From a virus, in IMG/VR virus record IMGVR_UViG_3300037584_002838, positions 29,781-93,780 of that record: a stretch of DNA of 64,000 bases. The stretch is one strand, 5' to 3'. Position numbers and translations under genes: made by a program. Positions within the stretch are counted from its first letter, which is position 1. The number at the start of each line of letters is the position of its first letter. Under the pieces are notes generated by a model. It ran no database searches. It was not told where the DNA came from and saw nothing but the letters and a program-made list of their open reading frames with translations. Positions 29,857 through 55,568 of this stretch are shown piece by piece.

Positions 29857-30171
29857 ATGACATGGAAAGATGTGTTAAAGTTTGATAGAGCCAAAATGAG
29901 GCAAAGGGCAGAAAGAGAAGAAAAGGAAATTGATGATTTATCACCACACCAATATTCTGGTGCTAAAAAAGACCAAATGAGCCTACTTGCTAGTATAAAG
30001 CGTACAGAAGAAGAACAAGACCATTTAGATAGTCGAAAAGACAAAAGAAGAAAAATGGGTCTTAAAGGTAATGAGTCCTTTCCTAGAAAAAGAAGGAAAC
30101 ATAGGGGAGGAAGAGGTCGATTAGGAGATACAAAACTACTTCCTATACCTAAAGGAAAAAGAGGTAATTAA
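29857..30171 (+). CDS. Basic protein with MTWKDVLK tag
   Basis: N-terminal family motif. Confidence 0.75.
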   Translation: MTWKDVLKFDRAKMRQRAEREEKEIDDLSPHQYSGAKKDQMSLLASIKRTEEEQDHLDSRKDKRRKMGLKGNESFPRKRRKHRGGRGRLGDTKLLPIPKGKRGN

Positions 30172-30172
30172 T

Positions 30173-30583
30173 ATGACTTGGAAAGATATATTAAAACAAA
30201 AAATCCCAACGCAACAACCACAAGGATTTCCAATAGAAGGGAAAATTCATGTATATGACCCAAATATAGGAGATAGTGATAGTTATTGGCTAACATTTTA
30301 CAGTAACGATTGGGATGATGGTCTTGAAATACGAAAAAGAGAAAATTCTCAGTTTCAAAAAGAGGTTGTGGAAAAACATCCTAATTCCCCTCTTGTAGCA
30401 TTTTTTAATAAATTTGCTAAGTTTAGAAGAAGAGTGTCTAAACCAGATGATAAATATGACTTTGATATTACTGATATTCAAATGATTAAAGAACCAAAAC
30501 CACAAGAAATAAAATCAGTAGCAAAAAGTATGGGTCTAAAACTTCATATTAACCCTACTAATATAGATGAGGATGAGTATTGA
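30173..30583 (+). CDS. Protein with MTWKDILK tag
   Basis: N-terminal family motif. Confidence 0.8.
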   Translation: MTWKDILKQKIPTQQPQGFPIEGKIHVYDPNIGDSDSYWLTFYSNDWDDGLEIRKRENSQFQKEVVEKHPNSPLVAFFNKFAKFRRRVSKPDDKYDFDITDIQMIKEPKPQEIKSVAKSMGLKLHINPTNIDEDEY

Positions 30584-30609: not shown

Positions 30610-30717
30610 ATGACTCGATGCAAATTACTTGACACTTGGTTTGATGCTAAGTCTAAGGAATTAGATAAGGCAGAAAAAGAGAAGAATAAAGATTTGATAA
30701 CAGGTGAGAAGAAATGA
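30610..30717 (+). CDS. 35-aa small protein
   Basis: GGTGA RBS; MTRCKLLDTWFDAKSKELDKAEKEKNKDLITGEKK; coupled to next gene. Confidence 0.55.
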   Translation: MTRCKLLDTWFDAKSKELDKAEKEKNKDLITGEKK

Positions 30718-31040
30718 GTTGGGAAGATATAATGAAAAAAGACTATGTAAATGTAGATGAAGAATTAGAAGATTTAGAAAATCAAGTAGAAGAGTATGAG
30801 CGATTAGCACTCGCTCTCGGTCAAATAGCACAAGTCGCAATAAAAGGTCATATCTATGCTAAAATGCCTGAAGATAAAAGAGAAGTATTCGATAAAGCAG
30901 TAAAGGGAATGAAAGAGATGAAAGAACAAGCCGAAAAAGCCAAAAAAGCATATAATGACGCAATAAAAAATATGGCTGAACTATTGGGTACAGAAAATAC
31001 TGCTAAAGATGTAAAAGACTTTATTTCGGAAAATATGTGA
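30714..31040 (+). CDS. Coiled-coil protein with MSWEDIMK tag
   Basis: N-terminal family motif. Confidence 0.8.
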   Translation: MSWEDIMKKDYVNVDEELEDLENQVEEYERLALALGQIAQVAIKGHIYAKMPEDKREVFDKAVKGMKEMKEQAEKAKKAYNDAIKNMAELLGTENTAKDVKDFISENM

Positions 31041-31049: not shown

Positions 31050-31340
31050 ATGGTTTGGGAAGATGTAATTAGAAAGAGTTTTTTATCAGTAGATAGAGAT
31101 GGTATGATTACTTTATCGCAACAATATAAAGGGGCGAATAAAACAAAATATTCAAGAGAAATGATTAATCACGCACTTAGGCAATTAGGACTTACTTACG
31201 AACAGGCAAATATGAATACTGAAAGTGCAGGGTTATTAGAAATATATCTTAATCGTGGAAATAGTTACTATGCCTATAATCGTAAACAACGAATGAATAT
31301 TATGCGACAAGCCGGTGCGCCATTTTTACAGGATGATTAA
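31050..31340 (+). CDS. Protein with MVWEDVIRK tag
   Basis: N-terminal family motif. Confidence 0.75.
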   Translation: MVWEDVIRKSFLSVDRDGMITLSQQYKGANKTKYSREMINHALRQLGLTYEQANMNTESAGLLEIYLNRGNSYYAYNRKQRMNIMRQAGAPFLQDD

Positions 31341-31341: not shown

Positions 31342-31710
31342 ATGACATGGTTCGATGTAGTTAAGATTCTAACTCCAAGACAGTTCCTTGAGTCTTTAGA
31401 GATAGATGGTATCATTAAAGGTAAAGCCGGTAAATATGGTACTAACATGGAATTAGTTAGTGATGATATTATTGTCAAGATTAGACAGGACAAGTATGGG
31501 ATGAACAGTGTTAATGTTAATGAAAAGAGGTTTGCATCCCATGACCTAAATAAGATATTAGTAGCGGTAAAGAAGGAATTGAAAGAAGATTCTTATACCG
31601 ATGCTTTACTAAGAGAAGATGGGATAGTGGATTCCGGCAAGGCCGGCATCATTAATATGAGATATTCACCAAAAAAGGAGGATGAAGAAGATGGCGAAGA
31701 AAAAGACTGA
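31342..31710 (+). CDS. Protein with MTWFDVVK tag
   Basis: Internal ATG gives the family motif. Confidence 0.75.
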   Translation: MTWFDVVKILTPRQFLESLEIDGIIKGKAGKYGTNMELVSDDIIVKIRQDKYGMNSVNVNEKRFASHDLNKILVAVKKELKEDSYTDALLREDGIVDSGKAGIINMRYSPKKEDEEDGEEKD

Positions 31711-32800
31711 GAAGAGTCCCTCGGGGGATGGCTATGGTAATACCATAGAATCAGAACCCTTGACATTTAGAAAAGCATACTTAGAGTGGGAAAATAAGTG
31801 TAAGGGTATCAGTGCTAAAGAGATACAATCAGAGGGTAGAAAGGGAGTAAGAAGTGTTCCGCCTAATTTGTTTGAGCAGATTCAAGAGCATGTAACGGCG
31901 GCATTTAGACGACCCGAATCAAGCAATGACGGTACTAAAGGTGCCTATGTTTTGATAGAGGATATAATTAAAGCACTCAAAGATGATAAGTTGTTTTTGG
32001 AAAATGAAAGAGATAATCTTGAAAAGTTCCAGAAAGATATGGGAGTATTCCTCAAGGCTAACAGTAAATTAAATCCAAGTAATATTGAGTTTAATAGACC
32101 AAAATCATACGATGTAGTGAACGGCAAAGTAGTCAATGAAAGTGAAGATACAGTGTCTATTTATGGACATTATGTTGATGATTATTTTGTGGCTAAATAT
32201 CCGAAGAAGAAGTATGAGGTAAATACAGAGTGGTTTAACAGAAATAAAAATACATCTAATCCGCCATACAAACAAGCATTGTTTGGTGATGGCGATTTAC
32301 TTGGAAAAGGTGAAGGCCTTTTAGATGTAATAGAATTAGCATTAAAAGAGTTAGATGAGAAGGCTATCGAACTTTATACTATTGGAATTAAAAGAGCATC
32401 TGCTTTAGCAAGACTACCTTCGGTTCAATCATGGGTTAGACGCAATATCACAAAGAAGCAATTCTATCCTTCTAATAGTGGTAAAATTAATTTGGGCCAA
32501 ATAAGTCAAGCATTGCTAACCGTAGAGTTTCCTATCAAAAACGACATAGAGCAAAGAATAGTAACTATGGCCGCTACGAATAAAGACATTGAGTTTGCTC
32601 AGAAAATAGAGAGATTCAAAATCGGGAGAATAAGTAATCAAGTTATGGCTACTCTCATTAGAGAAGTAATCGCAAGAGGTAAGAAAGAATATATTGAAGT
32701 CAAGAACGGCTACTACTTACAGTTAAGGGGATTATCCGACCCTCCTTCTGAAACATGGAAAGAAATCAAAAAGAGTTGGATGCAACATTTATGGGCGTGA
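31682..32800 (+). CDS. Hypothetical late protein (372 aa)
   Basis: Long ORF; ends ...IKKSWMQHLWA. Confidence 0.8.
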   Translation: MKKMAKKKTEKSPSGDGYGNTIESEPLTFRKAYLEWENKCKGISAKEIQSEGRKGVRSVPPNLFEQIQEHVTAAFRRPESSNDGTKGAYVLIEDIIKALKDDKLFLENERDNLEKFQKDMGVFLKANSKLNPSNIEFNRPKSYDVVNGKVVNESEDTVSIYGHYVDDYFVAKYPKKKYEVNTEWFNRNKNTSNPPYKQALFGDGDLLGKGEGLLDVIELALKELDEKAIELYTIGIKRASALARLPSVQSWVRRNITKKQFYPSNSGKINLGQISQALLTVEFPIKNDIEQRIVTMAATNKDIEFAQKIERFKIGRISNQVMATLIREVIARGKKEYIEVKNGYYLQLRGLSDPPSETWKEIKKSWMQHLWA

Positions 32801-32804: not shown

Positions 32805-33188
32805 ATGACTTGGGAAGATATAATTAAAGTTGGATATATTCCATCAGATGCAAAAGAAAGAAGCGCACCGACAATAAATTGGATGGATGCTTTTCATAAG
32901 TATGGATTCGATGATGGAGAAGAAAATAATGGACAAACAGAAGAGATTGCTGACTTTTTATCTAAAAACGGTTATAAAACACAATTGATTGAAGCCGGAG
33001 GACATAATACCTATATTAAATGGGTAGTGAAAGAACCGGAAAAGTATCAACATAGATTATATGAATATCCTACCGATAGTCGTAGGCATAGAGATGCCCC
33101 ATCAAGAGATAGTTTTGATAAAGAGTTATTGAAACTATTAGATGGTAAATATGGTAAATCAATGAAGTCCAAAGGTGTCAAAGGGTGA
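32805..33188 (+). CDS. Protein with MTWEDIIK tag
   Basis: N-terminal family motif. Confidence 0.8.
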   Translation: MTWEDIIKVGYIPSDAKERSAPTINWMDAFHKYGFDDGEENNGQTEEIADFLSKNGYKTQLIEAGGHNTYIKWVVKEPEKYQHRLYEYPTDSRRHRDAPSRDSFDKELLKLLDGKYGKSMKSKGVKG

Positions 33189-33192: not shown

Positions 33193-33849
33193 ATGATAAC
33201 CCGTAAAAGATGCGCTCTTTGTCAGCATGAAGATAGAGAAGAAATGGAAGCCGCATTAGAAGGCGGTTTTATTTCATGTGATGATTTAGATAAAAGAGAA
33301 GGTTGGAGAAGCGGTACTGCCGCACAACACATGAGAAATCATATGGGAGATTACACAAATAGCAGTAATCCCAAATGTAAATTATGCACAGACCCAATGA
33401 GGAAGCATTACGAAGAAGCACTTTCAAACGGAAATATAACTGCTGATGGTGTTTCACAGGCTCTCGGTGTCACTAAAGAGCAGGTGCAAAGACACATGAA
33501 GCACCACTTAGCACCGTTGGTTCAGCAATCTGCCGCCAGCATTATAGCGAAAAAGGAAGTAAATGAAATTGAATTGCTAAGTGCTAACATACAAAGGCTT
33601 GATACGAAGTTAGATGAGTTATTCAGAAATACAGAATTAGAGCCAAGAGAGATAGATAGCCTAACTAAACTTGCAAAAGAAGTTAGAGAGAGTTTGAAGT
33701 ATCTTATGGAGTTTAAGGGTAAATTGGTTCACAAGCGACAAGATACAATTATTGTCGCACAAATGCAAATTGTTCAAGAAGTGCTTGCACAGAACAATCC
33801 TGAGATTTGGCTTGATATTAAGAAAAGAATGCAGGAGAAATTACAATGA
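33193..33849 (+). CDS. Candidate terminase small subunit (two CxxC..HxxxH HTH/Zn modules plus coiled coil)
   Basis: CALC...HMRNH and CKLC...HMKHH, then an oligomerisation helix; upstream of TerL. Confidence 0.55.
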   Translation: MITRKRCALCQHEDREEMEAALEGGFISCDDLDKREGWRSGTAAQHMRNHMGDYTNSSNPKCKLCTDPMRKHYEEALSNGNITADGVSQALGVTKEQVQRHMKHHLAPLVQQSAASIIAKKEVNEIELLSANIQRLDTKLDELFRNTELEPREIDSLTKLAKEVRESLKYLMEFKGKLVHKRQDTIIVAQMQIVQEVLAQNNPEIWLDIKKRMQEKLQ

Positions 33850-34297
33850 GTTGGCAAAAAATATTGAAAGAAACAAGAGTAAGTGGAGGCGGTAGTTTAG
33901 ACCTACGAGATGGTAAAGAACTTATTACTGAAAACTTAGATATTACTATTGAATTAAAAGAAGTTTCTGGTGATTTTACAAGAAAGCCTCGCTCTTATGG
34001 TGGGGATATAGTATCAGATAGATACAAACCTAATGTCGGATTCACAGAATTTGGTTCATATGAATATGCTTTTTTACCTAAACTAAAAGGATATGCTGAA
34101 TTATATGATGGAGATATATTGATACAGAAATTCAAGGCGGAGGAAATCGAGGTTTTCTTTGAAGGGGGTTCTTTCAAAAATATTAAAACATTCCCTGTTC
34201 CAATCACCTTTACTGCTGAATTAGATTATGATGATACACCTATTATTTACATCACTATGCAGGTTGCTTAATTACAGGAGAAATTACAATGAGTTGG
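33832..34297 (+). repeat. Exact 23-bp direct repeat CAGGAGAAATTACAATGAGTTGG at 33832-33854 and 34275-34297
   Basis: Read directly; brackets the 33846 gene. Confidence 0.9.
33846..34271 (+). CDS. Protein with MSWQKILK tag
   Basis: N-terminal family motif. Confidence 0.8.
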   Translation: MSWQKILKETRVSGGGSLDLRDGKELITENLDITIELKEVSGDFTRKPRSYGGDIVSDRYKPNVGFTEFGSYEYAFLPKLKGYAELYDGDILIQKFKAEEIEVFFEGGSFKNIKTFPVPITFTAELDYDDTPIIYITMQVA

Positions 34298-34729
34298 TTT
34301 AGCATACTAAAAATATCCACAGAAGAGGCTATTAGTGATGCTAAACGCTTTGCCCCTGAGATGATAGAAGAAGGGAAGAAATTAAACCAAGAAGAAAAAG
34401 AAAGAAATGAAAAACTTCAATGGGAAAAGTTTCAACCCAACCTTAAAAAAATAATTAATATATTCCAAGAATGGTTAAATAAAACTCCTAAAGATGCCTA
34501 TTCAAAAGCGGGATATAGACAAATTAATTATGGACATAAATGGCAAGAAACTTTGGAAGATATAGAATATCTTATTAAGTTTATGCCATACTCTAATTTT
34601 GAAGCGTTTGATAGAATGTATCAAGATGCTATTTGGCATTTCAAAAATTGGCCCTACAAACAAAACTTGCATATTGGCAACGATAAGGTTAAGGAAATTG
34701 AAAGATTAAGACAAGAGGGATTACAATAG
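34289..34729 (+). CDS. Protein with MSWFSILK tag
   Basis: N-terminal family motif. Confidence 0.8.
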   Translation: MSWFSILKISTEEAISDAKRFAPEMIEEGKKLNQEEKERNEKLQWEKFQPNLKKIINIFQEWLNKTPKDAYSKAGYRQINYGHKWQETLEDIEYLIKFMPYSNFEAFDRMYQDAIWHFKNWPYKQNLHIGNDKVKEIERLRQEGLQ

Positions 34730-36798: not shown

Positions 36799-39332
36799 TT
36801 TTAGACAATCATACAAAAGATTCTAAGAAAGTGTTAGAAGCACTTGAAAATAAATTCAAAGAATATAATGTTGGTAATAACCAAGCCAAAAGAAAACAGG
36901 CTATTGAAAATATGGAGGACTTTATTTTTGACCTTGTTGAAGATAATACTAAAGATTTAGATGATAGCATCGTTGATGATATTGTAGAAGAATTAGAAGA
37001 ATATCTTATGGGTTTGAAACCTACGGAAAAGGTTTCCGGCGTTGGAGAACAAGCCGCCGAGTTTTTACAAAGGCTACCACTAAGCAACATATTGTATGAA
37101 GGAACGCCCATTGCTGGACAAAAGAATATCCTTTTAACAAAAGGATTTAATGCAAATGCTATTTCTGTTAAAGAAGGAAGAACTGTAAAGATAGACAGGT
37201 TAGAAACCAACATCAAAGAAACAAAAAAGGATATGAAGTCCCTTGAAGAAACAATGGGTGCCAAACCTATTCAAACTCATGTATTCACTAATCTAAGGAA
37301 TATGACAAAAAGAATCCGTACAGTGATGAAAGAAGGCACAAGAGAATATAAGGTGTCTAAGTTTGAATTACACTTAGATAAGATATTTGGAACTGAAACA
37401 GGGAAATTCAAAGACTTAAAAGAAAGAGAGGCTACTTATCAATATTGGTCTGAAATTAAAGATGAAGAAGATAAGATGATTAAAAGTCTAAAAGAACTCT
37501 TAACTACACTAAAAGAAGTAAAAACTAAGGGAGAAAAAGAACATAAAGCCATTAGTGAGTTTGTTAATTTTGTTGAAAAGAATATTGACAAACTAACTTA
37601 TATTGAGATGTTTGAGCCGGTGTCTGATTCTTTAGAAGATATAGAAGTGAGAGCAGTAAAAATACTGAAAGACTTTGCTGAAGTCTACGGTATTAATATG
37701 AGTATGACAGGTCAAGAAGAAGGACTACAAACTCAATATGAAGATGATGAACCTTCTGATGATGAAGATGAGGAAAAGCCCACAAGTGCGGGTGAAGGAG
37801 ATACAATTAATCCTCAAGCCAAAGAGTCAATAGCGGAACTTGAACAAAACCTATCAGATGAACAGGAGTTTGACCCTCTTGGACTATTGGTTTTGAAAGA
37901 AGATTTAGGTGCCTTTGCCGCAATATATGGTGAAGTAGAGGAATTGAAATCTTTTGTTAGGGATAAAAAAGAACGATTTATTTTAGACCAAGACGATGAA
38001 GAAGCCGTCTTTGAAACCTTTGTTGATAAGATTGAAGCAGTTGAACAGTATGTAGATGAATCAGTGTTCAGAGAAAAAACATTCCCACTACCTATCTTTG
38101 CCGCAAATCTTCCGGCTCTTAGAATACACTACAAAAAAGTAGGTTCGGAAATAAATGTAAGAACACAAAACATAGACAGGTTCTTGGAATTATTTGTAAA
38201 TCTAATAGAAAATGACAAGACTCTATTCCCGCAAGATGTAGGATTACAAATGGCTGGCGCAGGTTCGGGGCCATTAAGCGAACAGTTGAAACTACCTGCG
38301 GGTAAAAGCGGAAAGAAGCCAAGTCCTAAAAGACAGTTTAGATACCTAAATACTGTTATTGGTGCAAAGGGTAGTCTAAGAGAGAACTTCTCACTCAGTA
38401 CAAAACTTGATAATAAGATAGCGGAACAAATTGATGTTCTTATCAAGCCGATGGTTGAGATTTACTTAGGGCCACAATTTACTATTCATTCAGCAGGTAT
38501 GGATTTACCATTTACAGACAATGCCGCTATGAGAATTATTTCATCATACAAGGACTTGGATGCTAAGTATATTAATTACCAAGCACTAAATAAAAAGTTC
38601 GCTAAATATGGAGAATCGTTAATTACTGATAGAGAAGCAAAAAGACTGTTGGAGTTCACTAATCTTTTGGCGAAGGGAGATACTATACAGAATCTAAATA
38701 CATTAGAGGAAAAAGGTGCAAACTTTGTCAAGGGAGTATATAGAATATTCAAAGATATAGATGAAGAAACTAAAAGCAAGACGGCTAATAATGCACTTAA
38801 AGACAGAATCCATAGAGAAGTCGCTTCGCTAATAGGTTCAATAAAAATACTTTCTGATGATAAAGAGGATAGGCCGTTCCTTGTCGGGGCTAACTACAAG
38901 AAAACGATTAAGCCACTTGAAGAATACTCAAACTTAGGTGTAGATAGAGTTGGTGAAATTACTGCTATTAGGTCTTTATCACAATTGATAGGAAGCAGTA
39001 AAGGAGAGGCTATCATAGATAGTGACATTGGAGAAAAGTTAGTGGCCGACTTTAGAACCTTAGCAAAGAGCGAAATTAATGATAAACTATTGGCGGTACA
39101 TGATAGTATTAGGCTACTAAAGAAGCAACCTATTTACCATTCATTCAAGAGGCTGGATGATGTAGACCACTTGGATTCTATGATTTCTAAGATGGAAAAG
39201 GACTACAACTTGGATATTTCAGCCAGCGAAATAACCGGTATTGTCAATACAATCAATTCATTTGATAGTATCAGCAAAGCATACGGAATTAGTTCAGAGC
39301 ATGTGTATGTGATTAAGGCTAACTTTAGGTGA
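36795..39332 (+). CDS. Large acidic protein (845 aa), possible internal virion protein
   Basis: Long ORF; no catalytic motif recognised. Confidence 0.8.
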   Translation: MILDNHTKDSKKVLEALENKFKEYNVGNNQAKRKQAIENMEDFIFDLVEDNTKDLDDSIVDDIVEELEEYLMGLKPTEKVSGVGEQAAEFLQRLPLSNILYEGTPIAGQKNILLTKGFNANAISVKEGRTVKIDRLETNIKETKKDMKSLEETMGAKPIQTHVFTNLRNMTKRIRTVMKEGTREYKVSKFELHLDKIFGTETGKFKDLKEREATYQYWSEIKDEEDKMIKSLKELLTTLKEVKTKGEKEHKAISEFVNFVEKNIDKLTYIEMFEPVSDSLEDIEVRAVKILKDFAEVYGINMSMTGQEEGLQTQYEDDEPSDDEDEEKPTSAGEGDTINPQAKESIAELEQNLSDEQEFDPLGLLVLKEDLGAFAAIYGEVEELKSFVRDKKERFILDQDDEEAVFETFVDKIEAVEQYVDESVFREKTFPLPIFAANLPALRIHYKKVGSEINVRTQNIDRFLELFVNLIENDKTLFPQDVGLQMAGAGSGPLSEQLKLPAGKSGKKPSPKRQFRYLNTVIGAKGSLRENFSLSTKLDNKIAEQIDVLIKPMVEIYLGPQFTIHSAGMDLPFTDNAAMRIISSYKDLDAKYINYQALNKKFAKYGESLITDREAKRLLEFTNLLAKGDTIQNLNTLEEKGANFVKGVYRIFKDIDEETKSKTANNALKDRIHREVASLIGSIKILSDDKEDRPFLVGANYKKTIKPLEEYSNLGVDRVGEITAIRSLSQLIGSSKGEAIIDSDIGEKLVADFRTLAKSEINDKLLAVHDSIRLLKKQPIYHSFKRLDDVDHLDSMISKMEKDYNLDISASEITGIVNTINSFDSISKAYGISSEHVYVIKANFR

Positions 39333-39853
39333 GAAATATGGCAGAAAAAATTCCCCCCGAAGAACTTTCTTTTGAAGAGATGTCTGAAAAAAAGGCCATT
39401 AAAGCCTTTCAAGATGACGGCTATTTTAATTATGTAAAAAGACAAATGAGATATGGTAAATTCTTACCTAGAGATTCTATATGGGCTACTGCCCCCGCTA
39501 CCATGTTTGTTGCTTTTTATGAGAATAAACCTGTAGGGGTTATTGGTTTTGCTGAACACAAAGGCGCACTTTTAATGGCAGGAACTCATGTTAGAGATGA
39601 ATATAGGGGAAGAGGCTTATCTAGTATTTTATTAGAAAAGTTATTAGAAGAAAAAGGAACTAAAACATTGTATGCTAATCCAGTTTCGGAAAGATTTGCT
39701 AACACATTAAAAAAATATGGATTCAAAGATATGGTAATAGAGAGTCTACCTAAAGATATACAAGAAGAACTTGAAGGAGTCAATTATCCCGAACAACTAC
39801 AAAAATGGGTCAAACACGAAATGACTTGGTTTATGTTGTTAAAGAAACGGTGA
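39329..39853 (+). CDS. GNAT-family acetyltransferase
   Basis: Motif A HVRDEYRGRGLS; LKKYGF. Confidence 0.85.
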   Translation: MRNMAEKIPPEELSFEEMSEKKAIKAFQDDGYFNYVKRQMRYGKFLPRDSIWATAPATMFVAFYENKPVGVIGFAEHKGALLMAGTHVRDEYRGRGLSSILLEKLLEEKGTKTLYANPVSERFANTLKKYGFKDMVIESLPKDIQEELEGVNYPEQLQKWVKHEMTWFMLLKKR

Positions 39854-44277: not shown

Positions 44278-44627
44278 CTTGGGAAGATATTCTGAAAAAG
44301 AAACCCAAGAGTGCAAAGTCAAGAGCCTTAGAAAGAGCCAAAAAGAAAGGACTTAAAGGCCTAAACAAGCCTCAGAGATTAAGTGATGATTCAGACAAAT
44401 CTCATCATGTTATGGCTTTTGAAGGTAAAAAGGCCAAGTATATCAAGTTTGGACAAAAGGGAGTTAAAACAAATCAAACTGCTGGACAAAGAAAAGCATT
44501 CAAAAGTAGGCATAAGAAAAATATCAAGCGTGGTAAAATGTCTGCCGCTTATTGGGCTGATAAAGTAAAGTGGAGTCCAAGTAAAACCAAAGAAAAAAAG
44601 AACAAGAAATGGCGCAAAGGAAGTTGA
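44274..44627 (+). CDS. Basic protein with MTWEDILK tag
   Basis: NKPQR, IKFGQKG, FKSRH, SAAYWADKVKW. Confidence 0.8.
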   Translation: MTWEDILKKKPKSAKSRALERAKKKGLKGLNKPQRLSDDSDKSHHVMAFEGKKAKYIKFGQKGVKTNQTAGQRKAFKSRHKKNIKRGKMSAAYWADKVKWSPSKTKEKKNKKWRKGS

Positions 44628-45244: not shown

Positions 45245-46882
45245 ATGGCTGAAAAAAAGCGCAGATTTTCTTTTACTAATTTGTTTAGGCGTTCTACTCC
45301 TAAACCTGCTGATAGGCAGATATTCAACATGGGTATTCAAGAAAGACAGAATAACTACATGATGACAGCACCTATCATTTATTCTATGGTTCAACAATCA
45401 GTTATTGTTAGAACCTGTATTACTCAATTAAAACAAGAAGTATATCGAAGAGGATATACTTGGGAAAAGGCCTTTGAGTCTATTTGTAATAGTTGTGGAA
45501 AAAAACACCAAAGACCTGTTGCCGCATGTTCAAGATGTGGTTCAGAAAATTTGAAACTGCCCGATGTAAAGCAATTAGAATATGCTGAGAAGTTTTTGGA
45601 AGGGTATGTTAATCCATCAGAACAGTTATTCATTGATGTGCTAAAGGAATTAGAAGATGATTTGAATACTATGGATGATGCGTATATTGTTCTTGTTAAG
45701 GAATACTTTATTGATGGTAACGGACAAATAAGAATGCACCGTATCAAAGAAATATTCAGAGGCGACCCTGTAACTATGTTCATCTATGCAGATGAAGATG
45801 GTGTAAAAGGAACCAAAGGATTTACTTGTATTAATCATAGAGATGTTCTACATACAGAACCGCATCATACTTGTGAACACTGTGGAGGAAATACTTATCC
45901 CGTTCATTATGTCAATAGAGCAAATGGTGACGACCAATACTTCTTAGAGGGAGAAGTATTACATTTCAGTAAGTATAGTCCAAGTAGACTCTATGGTTTC
46001 TCTCCTGTTATCACACTATACAATCACATTATGACTCTTATTGCTATGGAGAATTATGTCAATTCAGCATATACTAAGAGTAGAATGCCAAGAGGATTGC
46101 TGGCAGTACAAACACGCAACATGGACTCAATGAGAGCATTTTGGCGTGGTGTAAAAGAGAAGATGGAATCAGACCCACACTTTATTCCTGTTATGGGTAT
46201 TGAAGCAGAAGGCGGTAAAGGTGCCGTAGAGTGGATTAAGTTTATGGATAGTCTAAAGGAAATGGATTACATTTCCGTAAAGGATGATTTGAGAGATAGG
46301 ATTTCAGCATTCTATGGTGTGAGTAAAGTATTCATGGCCGATAATACTACAAGTGGCGGTTTGAATAATGAAGGTATGCAAATCTTAGTTACTAATCGTG
46401 CAGTGCAAATGGCTCAGAATGTGTATAATAATTATGTATTCCCTTACTTAGTTAAACAATTTGGAATCACAGATTGGGTTCTTAAATTACCGCCATCCGA
46501 AGAAGAAGATGAAATCGCTGAGTTGAGAAAAAGAGAGATAGAAGTCAATATTGCGGCTTCAATCAAAAACTTAGGCTTTGAAGTAGAAATGGATGAAGAT
46601 GGTAACTTTACCTTTGAAAAACCGGAACCGGTTGAAGAAGAACAGCCAGCAGAAGAAGGCCAAGTAGAGAATGACCCATTAGCAGGTTCTAATTTAGACC
46701 AAAGGGATTTAGATGAACAAGCAAGACAATTTGCTCAAGGTGGAGGAAAACCACAGGAAAACCCACCAGCCACAAGGAATAAAGCCCGAAACGAAGTAGG
46801 GCCGGATAAGCGTATGACAGGATTACCAGCAGAAGCAGGTAATCAAAATGTAGATTCAAGAACTGAAAGGAGAGTTGGTTGA
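45245..46882 (+). CDS. Portal protein with Zn-ribbon insertions
   Basis: EVLHF..YGFSPV, N.Y...RMPRGLL, ISAFYGV; position between TerL and protease. Confidence 0.88.
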   Translation: MAEKKRRFSFTNLFRRSTPKPADRQIFNMGIQERQNNYMMTAPIIYSMVQQSVIVRTCITQLKQEVYRRGYTWEKAFESICNSCGKKHQRPVAACSRCGSENLKLPDVKQLEYAEKFLEGYVNPSEQLFIDVLKELEDDLNTMDDAYIVLVKEYFIDGNGQIRMHRIKEIFRGDPVTMFIYADEDGVKGTKGFTCINHRDVLHTEPHHTCEHCGGNTYPVHYVNRANGDDQYFLEGEVLHFSKYSPSRLYGFSPVITLYNHIMTLIAMENYVNSAYTKSRMPRGLLAVQTRNMDSMRAFWRGVKEKMESDPHFIPVMGIEAEGGKGAVEWIKFMDSLKEMDYISVKDDLRDRISAFYGVSKVFMADNTTSGGLNNEGMQILVTNRAVQMAQNVYNNYVFPYLVKQFGITDWVLKLPPSEEEDEIAELRKREIEVNIAASIKNLGFEVEMDEDGNFTFEKPEPVEEEQPAEEGQVENDPLAGSNLDQRDLDEQARQFAQGGGKPQENPPATRNKARNEVGPDKRMTGLPAEAGNQNVDSRTERRVG

Positions 46883-47121: not shown

Positions 47122-50100
47122 ATGTCATCTTGGAAGTCCATTATAGCAGGTCGTGAAAACGATGTCTATTTTCTACTAAAGGAATTAGTAGAAGATAGAG
47201 AAATAGCGAAGGCTATTGGTGATTTCAAAGGAGTATCTGGCCCGAATAAAAAACAAGAGGATGAGCGTAGTCTTAAAGAAAGACTCAAAGACTTTTCTAA
47301 AGGTAGGGTCGAGCAAAGAGAAAAAATAGAAAGAGCATTTGAATTATCAGAAAAGGCCATAAAGGAAAATGATAGTAAGGATGCTTCTGAATATATAAAA
47401 GAGTTATTTGTTTCAAAAGAGGGCTTTACTCAATTCGATAAAGAGATTTATGAAAGCATTAAAAATGTAATGGACACAAAGAAATATGAAACTAATATTG
47501 ATGTAAGTGATAAAGATAAAGAAATACTTGCTAATTATGGGCGGCAAGCAGTACGGGATTTTATTGAAGGGCAGATAGAGTCCTCTTTAGGTTTAATTGA
47601 ACCTAAAGAAGTTGATTATGAACAAAAAATAAAAGAAAGAGAAGTCGAGTATAAAAATGCGCGTGATAATGCTAAAGAAGAAGGTAAAAAATTAGATAAA
47701 CAAATAAAGTTTATGGAGTCTGTATTAGGTGGTAAAAAGGTAAGATTGAGCGAAGTCGCTGAAGTATTAGAATTACCTATGAGAACAAGAAATGTTTCTT
47801 TAGAACAAAGAAGAAAACTACAAGACGATATTCAAAGAAGAGAAAATAGACTAAAATCTATTAAATTAGAAATAAAACGAAATAAAGAAGAACTTAAATC
47901 ATTGGAAGAATCAATGAAGGCTAAAGGAAAAGAGGCTGGATATTATGCTCTGCCTAAAAATAAAAAGGAAGCAGAAAAAAAGAAAGCCATATTAACTAAA
48001 GAATCGAATAGATTAGATAAAGAATTAAAAGAAATTAAAGCAGATGAAATAGAAAAAGATAAAAAAGAATTAAATTCTTTGAAGTTAGAATCACAAAAAA
48101 GTATGAAATTAGAAACTATTCAAAATGAAAAAGGATTCAAAAATGAATTAAAATCTCTCAAGAGAAAAAAACAAGGATTATCTTCTAAAGAAGAAGTCGC
48201 TAAAGACAAACTCAATAGCCTTCTTAGAATGGCATCCGTTGAAACGGATAAAGAAGAGTTTAGGGATATATTTGAATCTCTTGAAGATTATGGTAAGTCA
48301 GCAGTAAAGGACACTATTAAAGAAGTACAAAACCTTTCCAAAGATGAACTAAATAGAAAAATAAGAGATTCAAAATTAAAAATAATTGCCTCAGATAAAA
48401 AGAGTGCATTGGAGTCCTTTGATGAAACTACTGAATTAGTAAAAGTAAGAATAGAAAATATATTTAGTCAAAAAGAAAAAGATAAATTAATAGCCACAGG
48501 TAAAGAAGAAAGACCACAGGCAAAAGAAAGTGTTGCTTTCTCTGAAATATTTGGTGAAATAGAAGGAAAAACTTCTTTGAAAACTATTAAAGAATTACTT
48601 AATGAAGAAGGATTTAAGCAGTATCTTAGTGTATTAGATAAGAAAATAGTAATAGAGGGAGAAAAGATAGGTGCCTACAAAAAAATGACCGCTAAACAAA
48701 AGAATAATTTTATTCTTGATAACATGCCTAAGTTTAAGGAATACTACACTAGGCTAATGAGGGTATTAGATGATTTAGAGGCAAAGACACCTACTGAAGA
48801 TAAAAAGATTACAAAAATCAAAAAACTAATGGCTAAGTTACAAAGCAGATTCAAAATGACTAAAGAGGAAAGGGAAAAGCGTAAAAAGTCACCTCTTAGA
48901 TATGGCGCACAAAAAACTGCTGACTTTGAAGGTAAAAGCAAAGCCGGTATAAAGCAGGTTGTTAAAGAGCAATTAGCCGCAGAAGAAAAAATGCTATATG
49001 GCTACTTCTTTGAAAGAGCAAGGGTTGATAGTGCAAAAAAGCAAGAAGCACTACTAACAAGTGATGTTGGTGCCCAAACAAGAAAGTTTTGGAATGACTT
49101 ATCTTCAAACATGGATGCGTTTTCTAAAGCGTCGTCAAACTATCAAAATGAAGATGACTTTGTAAAAGCAATACAATCTTTCATTGGTAAAAATAATCTG
49201 CATGTAATAGATATTCTTAACTTAATGGGAACTAAGAGAAATAATAAAATTAGAAGTGATATACTTACTTCTATACAAAGCAACAAACTTTATCAGGATT
49301 TGACAAGGGCTAAGAAAGAAGCACCTACTCGATACAAAAAAGAAACTCTTGAGCAAAAAATTGCAAGACAGAAAAGAGAAGGGAAACAGGAGAAGAAGAT
49401 ACCTAAGAAGTATGAGCCGGATAAGAGGTATGAACCAAAAGACCCACGATTCCCAGAAAAAGAATCTATGTTAAAATCCGAAAAAGAGTCTGATGAGAAA
49501 GTGATAGATTCTATAAAGTGGGGCAAATTAAAATTAGAAGATGCAGTTAAATTAGCAAATGACATTAAGGCCGCTAAAGATTCTGATGATTTCGATACAA
49601 GTAACAAAAGACTACATACCTTCTTTACAAAAGAAAAGGGTAAAGAAGATAAGAATAGATTCTTCGCCTTCGTTGATGTAAATAGCAAGGCCGAAGTAGT
49701 TGTTAGAGGATTTTCCTACAAAAAAGGAGATAAAGGCTACAATGAAATAGAAAAGGCCGCAGACAGTATTCTCAAAAACTTAGAGAAAGAAGTTACCTTT
49801 GAAGGACAGGAAATGACAATACTTGAAGTAATTAATAGAATATCAAGAAACACTTTCAAATACAAAGCCGGTAGAGTAGATTCTGACACGAAGGATGCGG
49901 TAAGAGAACAGTTTGGAAAACTTGTTGAAGAAGCAATTAAGAATGTTAAGATGAAAAAATCCGAGCAATTCAGAATACCAAAGTTTTTCAAATCAAGAGT
50001 TAAAGAAGATACTAAAGTGTTTAGAAATGACTTAATGAAAATATTCCTACCGCTTAAAGGTAAATACGCATCAGACTACAATGCAATCACTAGAGAATAT

Positions 50101-50682
50101 AAGTCTTTAGTTGAAATTGATAATAGAATCTTTTTGGGTGCCGAAAAATTGCAAGAAATAATATTTGATGTTTATGAAAAAATAAATAGTACGGCTAAAG
50201 TAGAACCTAAAGAAAAAGATATTGATACAAGAGCAGGGGAAATGACTTACGCAGGTTCTCTTTATGCAAAGAAAAATGCACAGTTAAAAAGATTACTTAA
50301 TGCTTTGAAGAACTTTTGGGAAAATACTGACGCAAAATTAGATGCTAAATCAAAAACATTGTCGGATTATGAACGAAGGATGAACGAAAAGATAGAGTCA
50401 TTATCACAAATGGAAGATATTGATAGTCCTAAAGGAAAGGCTATCGAAAAAGTTATTGGCATAATGAAAGATTTTGCTGATAGAATAAATGAAGAAAGAA
50501 AAGAATATACTGATTCCCGAAGCAAAGAAGAACAAATATTAATGGACAAAATAATTAAAGTCCGTGAAGATATAACTAAAGAAATAGCCGAAAATAAGCG
50601 TCTAATAGAGGCTATGGAAAGCGGTGAAGGAAAAAGAACTAAAAGAGGAATCAAAGTACCTGCAAAGGAGGAAGATGAATGA
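47122..50682 (+). CDS. Very large Lys/Glu-rich coiled-coil protein (1186 aa)
   Basis: Long ORF; starts MSSWKSII. Confidence 0.85.
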   Translation: MSSWKSIIAGRENDVYFLLKELVEDREIAKAIGDFKGVSGPNKKQEDERSLKERLKDFSKGRVEQREKIERAFELSEKAIKENDSKDASEYIKELFVSKEGFTQFDKEIYESIKNVMDTKKYETNIDVSDKDKEILANYGRQAVRDFIEGQIESSLGLIEPKEVDYEQKIKEREVEYKNARDNAKEEGKKLDKQIKFMESVLGGKKVRLSEVAEVLELPMRTRNVSLEQRRKLQDDIQRRENRLKSIKLEIKRNKEELKSLEESMKAKGKEAGYYALPKNKKEAEKKKAILTKESNRLDKELKEIKADEIEKDKKELNSLKLESQKSMKLETIQNEKGFKNELKSLKRKKQGLSSKEEVAKDKLNSLLRMASVETDKEEFRDIFESLEDYGKSAVKDTIKEVQNLSKDELNRKIRDSKLKIIASDKKSALESFDETTELVKVRIENIFSQKEKDKLIATGKEERPQAKESVAFSEIFGEIEGKTSLKTIKELLNEEGFKQYLSVLDKKIVIEGEKIGAYKKMTAKQKNNFILDNMPKFKEYYTRLMRVLDDLEAKTPTEDKKITKIKKLMAKLQSRFKMTKEEREKRKKSPLRYGAQKTADFEGKSKAGIKQVVKEQLAAEEKMLYGYFFERARVDSAKKQEALLTSDVGAQTRKFWNDLSSNMDAFSKASSNYQNEDDFVKAIQSFIGKNNLHVIDILNLMGTKRNNKIRSDILTSIQSNKLYQDLTRAKKEAPTRYKKETLEQKIARQKREGKQEKKIPKKYEPDKRYEPKDPRFPEKESMLKSEKESDEKVIDSIKWGKLKLEDAVKLANDIKAAKDSDDFDTSNKRLHTFFTKEKGKEDKNRFFAFVDVNSKAEVVVRGFSYKKGDKGYNEIEKAADSILKNLEKEVTFEGQEMTILEVINRISRNTFKYKAGRVDSDTKDAVREQFGKLVEEAIKNVKMKKSEQFRIPKFFKSRVKEDTKVFRNDLMKIFLPLKGKYASDYNAITREYKSLVEIDNRIFLGAEKLQEIIFDVYEKINSTAKVEPKEKDIDTRAGEMTYAGSLYAKKNAQLKRLLNALKNFWENTDAKLDAKSKTLSDYERRMNEKIESLSQMEDIDSPKGKAIEKVIGIMKDFADRINEERKEYTDSRSKEEQILMDKIIKVREDITKEIAENKRLIEAMESGEGKRTKRGIKVPAKEEDE

Positions 50683-51041
50683 CATGGGATTTTTATGATA
50701 ATGGCGAAGAGTTTATTCTAAAAGCCAAAAAAGAAGAACCAAAAACTATTCTAAATAGTTTAGATAAAAAGCAGACAAAAAAACTCAAAAAGACATTACA
50801 GGCGGCTGAACCAACGGAGTTTTTCGGCCAAGACTTTACAAAGATGGGTGACTTGATTGATGTCCTCAAAGACTTAGACCTTACTAAATCAGATAAAAAA
50901 CTAAATAAGCGTATGAAGAGTATGGATGAGCGCAACCTTGATATTATAGCCACCGCTACCAAACTTCGTAAGGACTACGAAACCTTGTATCGACAACTTC
51001 GGGAAATGGTATATCCAAAGAAAAAGGGTGATTCAAAATGA
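50679..51041 (+). CDS. Hypothetical protein (MTW start)
   Basis: Coupled ORF. Confidence 0.75.
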   Translation: MTWDFYDNGEEFILKAKKEEPKTILNSLDKKQTKKLKKTLQAAEPTEFFGQDFTKMGDLIDVLKDLDLTKSDKKLNKRMKSMDERNLDIIATATKLRKDYETLYRQLREMVYPKKKGDSK

Positions 51042-51262
51042 CTTGGTGGAACATAATCAAATCAAGAGGAATAAGCAGTGGTGGCGGAAAAAAGCCACCA
51101 CCGAGAAAGCCATCTAAGAAAAAAGGCGGTAGAACCATACAGGGCGGTACTTATGAAGCGGCTATGAATAATCTATCATTAGAATATTCCAAAGGTAAAA
51201 TGACTGTTAATCAGTATGTTCGTGAAAAGAAAAAGATTCAAAAGAAGTTTGGGAAGGATTAA
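51038..51262 (+). CDS. Basic protein with MTWWNIIK tag
   Basis: N-terminal family motif. Confidence 0.7.
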   Translation: MTWWNIIKSRGISSGGGKKPPPRKPSKKKGGRTIQGGTYEAAMNNLSLEYSKGKMTVNQYVREKKKIQKKFGKD

Positions 51263-51263: not shown

Positions 51264-51503
51264 ATGACAGAAGTAAATGAAGATGTATTGGCTATACTAA
51301 AAGCCCTAACAGAAAAAATAGAGCAGTTGGAACAAACTGTTTATAATAATGATAATCTATTGATGAAGTCCGGTCTTGTTGTAGCAACAAGTCCAAGTCC
51401 AAAAATGAATAATACAATAGGTGCATCAACAGGAATCGGAGATGTTTCTAATATGGAATGGTCTGATATTCATAAGATGGTTGAAAAGATAGGTGGACAA
51501 TAA
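51264..51503 (+). CDS. Small protein ending in scaffold-like motif MEWSDIHKMV
   Basis: C-terminus nearly identical to the protease/scaffold C-terminus. Confidence 0.8.
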   Translation: MTEVNEDVLAILKALTEKIEQLEQTVYNNDNLLMKSGLVVATSPSPKMNNTIGASTGIGDVSNMEWSDIHKMVEKIGGQ

Positions 51504-51745: not shown

Positions 51746-54283
51746 ATGCCTAAATCCGGCCTTCTATTTGAGAAGGGTAAAGCCTCTAATGAAATCCTTC
51801 AATGTTTTGAAAGAGTAAGGGTCGCTTATCTTTCTGCAAGAACCGACCCTAAAGAGTACGGTTCAAAATGGAGAAGTGCCGTTGAATATCTTAGAGATAA
51901 CTATGATGATTCAGATGAGTTTGGAGAAGAGTTGAAAAAGTACATTGATTCCAAAGATTTAGAAAATGAGGATGCTTTAGATGTTACTACCACTATTGCT
52001 GAAAAAGTGTATGAATCAGTAAAAAGAATGAGATATGCTTCTGAACAAGTTTCTGACCCTTTCTCTAAAAACTTCAAGGATAATGTTCTTGAAGCATTAT
52101 TAGAATCACCCGAAACAATGGTTAAATTCGTGCATTATGCTATGAGGAATGATAATAAGGCACTTAATCCATCCATTTACAGCGTTAAAGACATGGAACC
52201 TGACACCATTACAGACGGTCTTATGGGTCTTGACCTAGAAGTGGAGGATATACCCCTGTATATTATCGAACACTATGGGGATGGAAAAGACTCAAAGAAG
52301 GTAGAAAAGAAAGTAAAGGCCGCACTTAATATGTTGGAGTTACTCTTCTTTTCCAAGCATAGCGAAGAAGAATGGGAAGAGTTAGAAGATATTGATATGG
52401 AAGTAGAAACACCCAAAAAGATGATACAGAAGTCTGAAACACAGAAGGGTAAAACTGATTTCATAACACCTAACAAACCTATGTATAGAATATTTGATAT
52501 TGATGATATTAGTGAATTGAAAGGTTTTAGTGGAGAATGGGTTGTTCAAGAAAAGTATGATGGTATGAGAATACAACTTCATAAAATAGATAATAACATT
52601 AAGGTATATTCTTACAACGAAAAAGACATTACCGATAAATGTAAAGACATAGTAGATGCTCTAAAGAAGAAGCATTTTGGTGATTGTATATTAGATGGCG
52701 AATTGATACTGTTTGATGGTGAAGATGCACTACATAGAGCAGATACAATCGCTCATGTGTTTAAGGGCAAATATCCTGATGCTAAACTAAAAGCACATAT
52801 GTTTGACATTATGCGACACAATGAGAAGTCTGTTGCTGATGAACCATTAAGTGATAGAATGAATATTATGTTTAATAATTATTCAGTGCATTCTACCGAA
52901 TACCTAAACTTCCCTTCAAAGAAAGATACTCGTATGGCCGATTCAATTAAGGACATAGAAAACTATTCAAAAGAAATTATGGATATGCCGACTTCTGAAG
53001 GTGTAGTAATTAAAGATGCTACTTCTACTTATTATATAGGAACACGAAAGAATCCTAAATGGATTAAGTGGAAAAAGTTTGTTGATTTAGATGTTATTGT
53101 ATTAGATAAGAAGAGAACAAAAAGTAATCTTTACTCTTATACTCTTGGTATTGACATTGGCCCAACTGAAGAAGAGGCTAAACATATCAAAGAATTAGAC
53201 GGTAAAAAGTACATGAATGTCGGAAAGGCACTTAATACTAAAATTGCCGTTGATGTCGGAGATATTATTAGAGTTAAAGTAGATGAAGTAAAGAAGAAAG
53301 GAGAAGTATATTCCCTTTATTCAGCCAAAGTAATAGAAGTACCGGAGGTTGAAATGCCGGATAAATTAGTTACATTAGAGATGTTATCAAAAGATACAAA
53401 GAAATCTCTTAACTATGATGTAAAAGCATTAGAGAAAGGAGTATCTATTACTGATTATATTCATGGAGAAGCCAATATTATTATTAAATCTGATATGGAT
53501 GGGTTTACTATTTACGGTTCTGAAGAAAACAATCTAATGTTTAAGAATGCCCTTGCTAATTTAGATGATTGGAAGCAACAGGCAGAAAGTATAATGAAAA
53601 CTAAACAAAGTATATTAGCAAATGAAATATTAAATTTTTTAGATGACGGCCCTAAACCAATTAAAAAATTACATGAGCATTTATTAAAAGAAGTTAAGTC
53701 TGAATATGAAGATATAATTTTAGATAAAAATAAAAACTTAAAAGATTGGGCTAAAAATAGAGATGGTATAGAATATAATCCTAAAACGAAAGAACTGTTC
53801 CGTGACCCCTCTAAAGTACAAAAAGAGCCAGAAATACTGAAAGCATACAAAACTCCTAAAAAATATCAAGAAGGTAACTTTAAGATATATTTAAGAGATG
53901 ATGAAAACTTAAATTTAGTAATTAAGTTAGAAGATGAAACTATCAATTGGCTTATTGATTTAGAAAAAGACGACGATATATTTAGATTATTTGGAAAGGC
54001 TAACAAATATCCTGCCCAAGTAGCACAGAACATATCCAAGAAAAAAGTTATTGATTCCGGTAAAATCAGATTAGGTGTTCAGAAAACAGGCTACCATGAA
54101 TACTTCTTAGAGGGTAATAAGTTTGAAACTAAGATGCACTTCCGAGTAATTGAAACGGATGATAAGACAATGTGGTTGGCATGGACGGGCTATAAACAGA
54201 AACCTGCTGATAAAGAAGGTGATTCCGGTTTATGGAATATCAGCGAAGATAGGTACTCAAAACTATCATTGCCGAAGAAATAA
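51746..54283 (+). CDS. Multidomain ATP-dependent ligase in the head module
   Basis: QEKYDGMR, LDGEL, MFDIM, EGVVIK, WIKWKK, OB-like region; extra N- and C-terminal domains. Confidence 0.88.
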   Translation: MPKSGLLFEKGKASNEILQCFERVRVAYLSARTDPKEYGSKWRSAVEYLRDNYDDSDEFGEELKKYIDSKDLENEDALDVTTTIAEKVYESVKRMRYASEQVSDPFSKNFKDNVLEALLESPETMVKFVHYAMRNDNKALNPSIYSVKDMEPDTITDGLMGLDLEVEDIPLYIIEHYGDGKDSKKVEKKVKAALNMLELLFFSKHSEEEWEELEDIDMEVETPKKMIQKSETQKGKTDFITPNKPMYRIFDIDDISELKGFSGEWVVQEKYDGMRIQLHKIDNNIKVYSYNEKDITDKCKDIVDALKKKHFGDCILDGELILFDGEDALHRADTIAHVFKGKYPDAKLKAHMFDIMRHNEKSVADEPLSDRMNIMFNNYSVHSTEYLNFPSKKDTRMADSIKDIENYSKEIMDMPTSEGVVIKDATSTYYIGTRKNPKWIKWKKFVDLDVIVLDKKRTKSNLYSYTLGIDIGPTEEEAKHIKELDGKKYMNVGKALNTKIAVDVGDIIRVKVDEVKKKGEVYSLYSAKVIEVPEVEMPDKLVTLEMLSKDTKKSLNYDVKALEKGVSITDYIHGEANIIIKSDMDGFTIYGSEENNLMFKNALANLDDWKQQAESIMKTKQSILANEILNFLDDGPKPIKKLHEHLLKEVKSEYEDIILDKNKNLKDWAKNRDGIEYNPKTKELFRDPSKVQKEPEILKAYKTPKKYQEGNFKIYLRDDENLNLVIKLEDETINWLIDLEKDDDIFRLFGKANKYPAQVAQNISKKKVIDSGKIRLGVQKTGYHEYFLEGNKFETKMHFRVIETDDKTMWLAWTGYKQKPADKEGDSGLWNISEDRYSKLSLPKK

Positions 54284-54329
54284 CCGATTTTATTATATAG
54301 TTAAAGAAGTACAAGGAAGGTTGAAAGAC

Positions 54330-55568
54330 ATGAGCATAAGTGTCATGGCAACAAGGAATGATGATTTTCATATTCTAAAAAGCCAAGACGATTTGATGAT
54401 AGGGGGATATGCAAGTATTGAAGTCGTGGATAAACAAAACGATTTAATTACACTAAAAGCATTACAAACCGCCGTTAAAAAATTCATGGAAGATAAAAAG
54501 TTCAGAAATGTAATGACAAATCATTCAAATGTTCAAGTCGGAGAAGTTGTAGACTCTTATAGAGATAAAAGTGGAAAACTATGGAAATCAGAAGTAGATG
54601 ATGTAGGGTTCTTTGTAGTAATTAAATTAAGAGATGACATAGAAAAAGCCAAAGAGGTTGGAAGAGGTATTCGCAAAGGCACATTAAGGTCTTTTAGCAT
54701 AGGTGGACAAGCATTACAAAAAGTAAAGAAAAGCCACGGTGAATTAGGGGAGTATAACGAGATAAGCAAATTAGAACTCCATGAAGTAACAATATGTGAA
54801 AAAGGCATTAATCCCGAAGCGAAGTTTGATATTCTGAAACAAGATATTGGAGATGAAAAAATGAGTGATAAACTTGAAAAAGCACTTGACGAACTTGATG
54901 TTCTTTTGAAAGAAGTTGAGATGTTAAGAGAGGGCGAGGAAGTTGAATCGGCTGAATACGCCGATGAGGGTTCTGATATGGAACAAGCAGATGACATGAT
55001 GGAACAAGCAGATGAAATGATGGAAAGAGCCGATGATGATGAAGGTGATAAAGATAAAGAAGCAGGTGACTATGATAGGGAAATGACTTCTGATAAGGCA
55101 TACCTTCGTACTCTTGATGGTGCTGGAAACCAAATTGGTGAACCAGCAGATAGAATCGTTATTAACAACGGAAAGCCAACTTCTTCCGATATGCCGGTAG
55201 TAAAGGCATTTGGAAACAATGAATTTGATACACTAAACCTATCAAATGCAAACATTGAGAAGGCTTACGAAGCATTCCGTCAAGAACAACTTGAAGCACT
55301 TGCATACGATAACCTACGAAAGTCCTTTGAAACTCGTTTTGAGTCAGAAGTGGCAAACCGTGAGAATGTTCTAGCAAAGGCTAACTATGACGCACAGGCT
55401 GAAATTGCTTCCATGAAGGAAGAGTTTAGCGAATTGAGAAAATCTCTTACTGCTGAAAAGGAAACTATCCTAAAGGCACAAGAAGAGTCAGTAATTAAGA
55501 TGCCAAGTATTGATGATATTGCATCAATGGATTGGTCTGATATTCACAAAATGGTGAACAATATTTAA
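54330..55568 (+). CDS. HK97-type prohead protease fused to scaffold
   Basis: GYAS..VVDKQND, MTNH, LRSFSIGG, LHEVTIC..GINPEA; coiled-coil C-terminus; TATA at ~54290. Confidence 0.92.
   Translation: MSISVMATRNDDFHILKSQDDLMIGGYASIEVVDKQNDLITLKALQTAVKKFMEDKKFRNVMTNHSNVQVGEVVDSYRDKSGKLWKSEVDDVGFFVVIKLRDDIEKAKEVGRGIRKGTLRSFSIGGQALQKVKKSHGELGEYNEISKLELHEVTICEKGINPEAKFDILKQDIGDEKMSDKLEKALDELDVLLKEVEMLREGEEVESAEYADEGSDMEQADDMMEQADEMMERADDDEGDKDKEAGDYDREMTSDKAYLRTLDGAGNQIGEPADRIVINNGKPTSSDMPVVKAFGNNEFDTLNLSNANIEKAYEAFRQEQLEALAYDNLRKSFETRFESEVANRENVLAKANYDAQAEIASMKEEFSELRKSLTAEKETILKAQEESVIKMPSIDDIASMDWSDIHKMVNNI
54978..55040 (+). repeat. Three 21-bp tandem repeats coding MEQADDM
   Basis: ATGGAACAAGCAGATGACATG x~3. 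Confidence 0.8.

Follow-up and report, generated by a model that had tools for sequence, protein, structure and literature searches.

The stretch of DNA analysed here (the window) comprises 64,000 nucleotides of the IMG/VR virus record IMGVR_UViG_3300037584_002838 (positions 29,781 to 93,780 of that record), and our subject is a short peptide, M-x-W-x-x-[IV]-[LI]-K, that recurs at the ends of otherwise dissimilar proteins encoded on its plus strand. The window consists of two divergent gene blocks. The early block, on the minus strand (1 to about 29,400), contains genes for an ATP-dependent DNA ligase and a Cpn60 chaperonin, as well as for a ribonucleotide reductase and a UvrD-type helicase. 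The plus-strand block (late) encodes a large terminase (39858; genes are referred to throughout by their start positions), an HNH-like protein (41298) and a portal protein (45245), followed by a second ligase (51746), an S78 prohead protease to which a scaffold-like region is fused (the protease-scaffold) and then an HK97-type major capsid protein (MCP; 55579).

Sixteen plus-strand genes begin with the peptide, hereafter called the tag, fourteen of them with an ATG and two (44274 and 44632) with a GTG start codon (Table 1). These are the clear cases among the N-termini listed in an earlier, sequence-only reading of this DNA, which we found where it had placed them; that of 47122 is weak. A strict DNA version of the pattern matches nine times in the window, always on the plus strand, against 0.05 matches expected from shuffled sequence, and no genuine gene of the early strand carries the motif, as that reading had also noted. 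It had further described the bodies of the tagged proteins as unrelated, and BLAST bears this out with the exception of 42656 and 42874, which form one family. Searches of the window's tagged proteins against Pfam and PHROGs gave nothing above the cut-offs. An AlphaFold model of the 43876 family has a predicted local distance difference test score (pLDDT) of 40, which makes it unusable for judging whether the tag stands free of the protein body.

Table 1. Tagged genes, carriers of C-terminal or variant motifs, and reference head genes in the window.
Feature	Coordinates	Strand	Length (amino acids)	Motif and remarks
Tagged gene	29857..30171	+	104	MTWKDVLK; isoelectric point (pI) 10.5
Tagged gene	30173..30583	+	136	MTWKDILK
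Tagged gene	30714..31040	+	108	MSWEDIMK; acidic, helical
Tagged gene	31050..31340	+	96	MVWEDVIRK
Tagged gene	31342..31710	+	122	MTWFDVVK
Protein with loose C-terminal motif	31682..32800	+	372	TWKEIKK (32753-32773)
Tagged gene	32805..33188	+	127	MTWEDIIK
Conserved core protein with loose C-terminal motif	33193..33849	+	218	IWLDIKK (33805-33825)
Tagged gene	33846..34271	+	141	MSWQKILK
Tagged gene	34289..34729	+	146	MSWFSILK
GNAT acetyltransferase with C-terminal tag	39329..39853	+		MTWFMLLKKR (39821-39850); adjoins large terminase
Large terminase	39858..41288	+		Untagged
Tagged gene	42656..42868	+	70	MTWEDIIHK; pI 10.7
Tagged gene	42874..43149	+	91	MTWQEVLK; Cys-rich, basic, related to 42656
Tagged gene	43149..43487	+	112	MWQNILK (second residue missing); pI 11.0
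Tagged gene	43484..43879	+	131	MSWKDILK; BLAST family of 45 members in related loci
Tagged gene	43876..44277	+	133	MSWEIILK; body Cys-rich, conserved
Tagged gene	44274..44627	+	117	(V)TWEDILK, GTG start; pI 10.7
Tagged gene	44632..45102	+	156	(V)SWIDLLK, GTG start
Portal protein	45245..46882	+		Untagged
Post-portal protein	47122..50682	+	1186	MSSWKSII, degenerate tag
Conserved protein with stretched tag variant	50679..51041	+	120	MTWDFY...EFILK
Tagged gene	51038..51262	+	74	MTWWNIIK; pI 10.5
Mini-scaffold, helical N-terminal part	51264..51503	+	79	Scaffold-type C-terminal motif MEWSDIHKMVEKIGGQ (51453-51500)
S78 prohead protease fused to acidic/coiled-coil scaffold region	54330..55568	+		C-terminal motif MDWSDIHKMVNNI (55527-55565)
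Major capsid protein, HK97-type	55579..56913	+		Presumed tag receptor; GNALLK-QAG conserved near residue 30

Degenerate or variant forms open other late genes. The orthologues of 47122 read MSWKAVLA, VSYSEILRK and MMHRIILK; this large protein, whose gene lies between those of the portal and the protease, matched nothing in Pfam or PHROGs and may be a head-internal or ejected protein. The cultured halovirus HVTV-1 has a 1313-residue protein annotated 'zeta toxin' at the equivalent position. The tag of 50679, which has 110 homologous open reading frames (ORFs) in related loci, is stretched, the start reading MTWD[FY]Y...E[FI][IT][LI]K with the MTW and ILK halves about eight residues apart. Finally, the frame that starts at 63993 runs off the end of the window; a relative (L010) has MTWNWYDIEK there, so that the MTW start expected by the sequence-only reading is likely, albeit as a variant and not as a canonical tag.

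The motif also occurs at the other end of proteins. C-terminal copies on the GNAT acetyltransferase, the protease-scaffold and the mini-scaffold (51264; MEWSDIHKMV) had been reported in the sequence-only reading and are present, and to these we add the two looser ones on 31682 and 33193. Relatives of the GNAT retain a C-terminal W-x-x-[VI]-L-[KR] that lacks the methionine, and other proteins terminate in similar ILK-type sequences (for example GGWRRVLKKA and KKWFEVLKTG). Among the window's late ORFs, the motif is found at 5 of 920 C-terminal positions compared with 4 of 10,170 interior positions; in the late proteins it lies at the N-terminus or in the last 25 residues, the sole other match being inside the MCP. 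The earlier description of a portable tag is upheld by these N- and C-terminal copies, which extend to hundreds of unrelated families, and the tag does appear to be portable to either terminus. We also considered stop-codon read-through or frameshifting that would join the C-terminal tags to the next gene (GNAT to large terminase, protease to MCP), and dropped it because the frame offsets are inconsistent (+1, +1 and −1) and because the C-terminal motif of the GNAT is kept as protein in relatives. The loose copies on 31682 and 33193 may be coincidental. The 33193 protein has 909 database matches, the best 120 of which are at least 81% identical, and its AlphaFold model (pLDDT 65) contains two small Cys/His plus helix modules and a long coiled coil; a Foldseek search of this model against the PDB gave no significant match. 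We regard the 33193 product as a candidate small terminase or late regulator.

The copies on the protease-scaffold and mini-scaffold belong to a form of their own. The sequence M-[DES]-W-x-D-I-H terminates both proteins and is the most conserved piece of the protease-scaffold. Both end M-[DE]-W-S-D-I-H-K-M-V in the window's clade, and in a second clade the protease-scaffold terminates M-S-W-[GD]-D-I-H-[NS]-L-[AV]. Distant lineages without N-terminal tags retain W-x-x-[IV]-H at the end of the scaffold or protease directly upstream of the MCP, and because they do so this scaffold-tail motif is old, older and wider in distribution than the tag system, and is probably central to assembly. The mini-scaffold has homologues in 112 stop-to-stop ORFs of related loci and is conserved at about 80 residues. 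In a distant low-GC lineage (L161), two small proteins upstream of the MCP (6708-7157 and 9523-9918) end DWNEFHGF and SWQDIHFMARGGK, and there too, therefore, a scaffold-type tail is present on more than one protein. The tag and the scaffold tail share M-x-W-x-D-I, after which the tag continues L-K and the tail H-(K/N). This difference is maintained, with tails reading I-H-(K/N)-[ML]-[VA] and tags I-L-K, and a single one of about 400 N-terminal tags in clade A being of the I-H type. The claim that the same motif stands at the scaffold C-terminus must accordingly be softened: the two are similar but consistently different, and seem best described as sister motifs that are not identical. As regards annotation, the ligase ORF of the structural module (51746-54283; 845 residues) overlaps the longest ORF for the protease (54150-55568), whose start is most likely at 54330 (MSISVMATR...), matching relatives.

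A comparison of proteases places the closest cultured relatives among the haloarchaeal siphoviruses HVTV-1 and HCTV-1/5. Group B magroviruses, the hosts of which are Marine Group II archaea, have genomes of about 90-100 kb with halovirus-like MCP, portal and protease, and encode a second ligase in the structural module, a GroEL-type chaperonin and a ribonucleotide reductase (Philosof et al. 2017; PMC5434244). Two ligases (one within the structural module), a GroEL-type chaperonin and a ribonucleotide reductase are found in the window, complete relatives measure 91-96 kb, and the source virus matches the description of a group B-like magrovirus. Its MCP has at least about 600 relatives in IMG/VR.

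The tag is widespread among these relatives. In about 4 Mb of related contigs there are 863 unique tagged proteins, which fall into 369 BLAST families. Enrichment across related genomes, which the sequence-only reading had put forward as a check, is pronounced: 160 loci, 2.2 Mb in all, that surround the MCP and portal genes contain 347 tagged ORFs on the structural strand and 0 on the other, and a narrow DNA pattern picked out more than 119 further IMG/VR stretches, in whose loci, spanning GC contents of 0.29-0.47, 561 tags lie on one strand versus 2 on the other. The second clade, with an MCP about 62% identical, has the same tags. In lineages whose MCP is 40-47% identical, N-terminal tags are absent from the 10 kb on either side of the MCP gene. 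One complete 90.9-kb genome with terminal repeats carries the motif in 17 of 75 late and 0 of 76 early genes (Fisher p = 2e-6), 12 of the late genes being tagged N-terminally and 5 having a C-terminal motif. Its carriers are all found from the beginning of the late block to a point just beyond the MCP, with none among the tail genes, and the motif appears to be restricted to late genes in or beside the head-gene block. In the virus of the window the motif marks about a quarter of the late genes.

Conservation of the tag is sharply bounded, with the W, I/V, L/I and K positions almost fixed and similarity ending abruptly past the lysine. The tag is a short amphipathic helix, its W, I and L side chains lying on the same face. 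Within 293 distinct tags from relatives, all six leucine and all three isoleucine codons occur in proportions near those of the gene bodies, and serine is encoded by both AGY and TCN codons. Selection acts on the peptide and not on the nucleotides, since codon use in the tag equals that of the bodies.

The proteins so marked are short (median 117 residues in related loci) and differ from untagged small late ORFs both in charge (median pI 9.5 versus 6.7) and in the frequency of transmembrane-like segments (0.3% versus 16%). A Pfam search with 100 family representatives found domains in only a handful; those recognised among tagged families in relatives are a CCA/poly-A nucleotidyltransferase, a pentapeptide-repeat protein, a PAP2 phosphatase and a GNAT. 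By sequence, then, the tagged set looks cargo-like, in that it is soluble, mostly basic and nearly all without known domains, and it is plausible that the few recognisable domains, though encoded by late-expressed genes, act early in infection.

The tag looks like the conserved tail of the scaffold of the same virus, and for this reason is most likely a label by which a fast-changing set of small proteins is loaded into the capsid. We favour, with slightly better than even confidence, the view that it is a procapsid address which mimics the scaffold tail and is comparable to the capsid-targeting sequence (CTS) of phage T4. The T4 CTS loads internal proteins into the prohead, and these enter the host with the DNA; in the T-even phages they form a diverse set in which the CTS is the only shared element and whose lysines contact the packaged DNA (PMC3012670). 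A segment of the HK97 gp4 protease likewise brings green fluorescent protein (GFP) into capsids when the two are fused (PMC11626933). In the magrovirus, the tag would dock during head assembly where the scaffold tail docks, which is most likely the inner face of the MCP or else the scaffold core. Proteins tagged at either end, which are mostly small, soluble, lysine-rich and devoid of known domains but include a few enzymes such as a GNAT, would thereby become enclosed in the procapsid, remain with the DNA and probably accompany it into the next host, like the internal proteins of T4, and the head protease may remove the tag after the lysine. The motif, its selection as a peptide, its position and distribution and its likeness to the scaffold tail are shown by the sequences; binding, packaging, cleavage and delivery are steps that we infer. 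Packaging for the next infection would give a reason why basic proteins, a GNAT, a tRNA-type nucleotidyltransferase and a pentapeptide-repeat protein are expressed late. A bolder version of this proposal, which we hold tentatively and rate a little below an even chance, is that magroviruses possess a natural cargo-loading system in which an eight-residue mimic of the scaffold's capsid-binding tail, placed at either terminus, brings hundreds of fast-evolving families (among them a GNAT, a CCA-adding-type nucleotidyltransferase and a pentapeptide-repeat protein) into the head, the S78 protease cuts after the lysine, and injection then delivers the cargo to Marine Group II archaea, where it serves as a first-strike kit for host takeover or anti-defence.

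The suggestion of cleavage comes from the sites themselves. The sequence [IVLM][IL]K occurs six times in the protease-scaffold where 1.3 occurrences are expected (about 4.5-fold over-represented), NPEA[KR]FDILK is invariant just after the protease domain, and GNALLK-QAG in the N-terminal arm of the MCP (residues ~24-32) is invariant in both clades. These ILK/LLK-type sites in the MCP arm and protease-scaffold are candidate Lys-specific maturation cleavage sites, and we hypothesise that the tag, too, is cut after its lysine.

Several observations weigh against capsid loading by scaffold mimicry. The consistent difference between tags (I-L-K) and scaffold tails (I-H-K/N) means that the two need not share a receptor, and both are invariant across the sampled clades, so that there is no co-variation to compare. 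The two loose C-terminal carriers are awkward, and 33193 especially so, because a small terminase, which it may be (or a regulator), would act outside the capsid. Candidate cleavage sites of the [IL][IL]K type, whose loss would betray exposure to a Lys-specific protease, show no specific depletion from the cargo bodies (ratio 0.76), a test that does not discriminate because early proteins give 0.81. Finally, HVTV-1 has neither the tag nor the scaffold-type tail, and no virion data are transferable from it for that reason.

What other roles could the peptide play? The strongest competing explanation, which we nevertheless consider unlikely, is that the tag docks its carriers onto another hub of the late phase. 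The portal or the terminase could be that hub, or else a chaperone or an assembly factory, and the resemblance of the tag to the scaffold tail would then reflect a shared partner other than the MCP. Short linear motifs at the termini of many proteins are typical of hub binding, and the loose copies on 33193 (possibly a small terminase or a regulator) and on the GNAT beside the large terminase would fit such a role. Sites on a portal or terminase are few, however, set against some 20 tagged species per genome, and the tags cluster in or beside the head-gene block. Moreover, scaffold and protease are necessarily inside the procapsid, and an extreme C-terminus is the classic capsid-binding site, as in HK97 gp4, P22 gp8 and herpesvirus UL26/UL26.5. 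More doubtful still is the idea that the peptide is mainly a propeptide or is recognised as a substrate by the S78 head protease (with cleavage after hydrophobic-hydrophobic-Lys), and that it carries no address. The excess of such sites in the protease-scaffold and the two invariant sequences described above speak for this, but the loss of eight residues would then have no obvious purpose unless the peptide also targets, a cut at the C-terminal copies, 2-4 residues short of the end, would remove almost nothing, and the site is not specifically depleted in cargo bodies. Furthermore, a protease substrate is compatible with a procapsid address, as the T4 CTS illustrates, and does not exclude it.

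We think it very improbable that the tag serves to bring late proteins to the host membrane as an amphipathic, membrane-binding helix. The thought arises because it is nearly identical to the conserved N-terminus of the dermaseptins, ALWKDILK, which are membrane-active helices of frogs, and because many tagged proteins are cationic. Eight conserved residues with three hydrophobic side chains are nonetheless too short for stable membrane binding, dermaseptins needing about 27-34 residues; in addition, the same class of motif is found at the end of the scaffold and of the protease, neither of which has a role at membranes, and transmembrane segments are almost never seen in tagged proteins. Conservation purely at the nucleotide level, in the service of translation initiation, was recognised by the sequence-only reading as fatal to its proposal; such an explanation, or one by a recombination boundary, could be entertained because the motif overlaps start codons and follows a Shine-Dalgarno-like GGTGAT, but it is largely refuted by the free use of synonymous codons (serine included) and by C-terminal copies that have no start codon.

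A capsid-loading role for the tag would have several consequences. Archaeal viruses that are among the most abundant in the surface ocean would carry a large and rapidly changing protein payload, and this payload would be a likely place to find archaeal anti-defence and host-takeover functions directed at a host group that is not yet in culture. The tag provides a sequence rule with which candidate virion cargo can be picked from unannotated magrovirus genes, beginning with the 369 families in our sample. To our knowledge, it would be among the shortest portable capsid-loading tags, and an eight-residue peptide that seems to function at either end would, together with a shell of the HK97 type, provide a compact means of putting proteins into capsid-like particles.

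How does this system compare with those already known? A literature search for the literal peptide returned only the dermaseptins, and the motif is not mentioned in the magrovirus papers checked. The likeness to dermaseptins is limited to ALWKDILK, with eight residues conserved here in place of a 27-34-residue helix, and probably reflects convergence on a Trp-anchored amphipathic helix. Encapsulins and bacterial microcompartments also use a short N- or C-terminal peptide to send unrelated cargo into the lumen of a shell, which in encapsulins has the HK97 fold; encapsulins thus resemble the present case in both the short terminal address and the shell. They differ in that the window has portal, terminase and tail-region genes, the motif is another one, and the cargo would be co-packaged with DNA. 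The tails of HK97 gp4, herpesvirus UL26/UL26.5 and P22 gp8 are comparable in that the most conserved motif stands at the extreme C-terminus of the protease-scaffold. Herpesvirus UL26 (protease) and UL26.5 (scaffold) share an MCP-binding end, and the magrovirus parallel is a separate scaffold-like protein, 51264, with the same tail as the protease-scaffold. However, whereas those tails serve assembly proteins or engineers, the magrovirus look-alike has apparently spread naturally to hundreds of accessory proteins, mostly at their N-termini.

The closest counterpart is the T4 CTS, carried by IPI-III and Alt and by the polymorphic T-even loci, which is likewise a short N-terminal peptide shared by a fast-changing set of otherwise unrelated small lysine-rich proteins. 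The magrovirus tag has no sequence likeness to it and lacks the L/I-x-E cleavage site, ending instead in I-L-K, and the protease is of the S78, HK97-type family in place of gp21. Unlike the CTS, the tag also occurs C-terminally, looks like a scaffold tail, belongs to a virus with an archaeal host and is found on far more families (369 in the sample). As a provisional class assignment, we would therefore place it with T4 CTS-like loading, the new elements being the archaeal virus, the S78 protease, the use of either terminus and the putative derivation from a scaffold tail. If this is correct, it would be the first such loading system in archaeal viruses, and T4-style loading logic would have arisen independently, with another protease family and another tag, by the copying of a scaffold tail.

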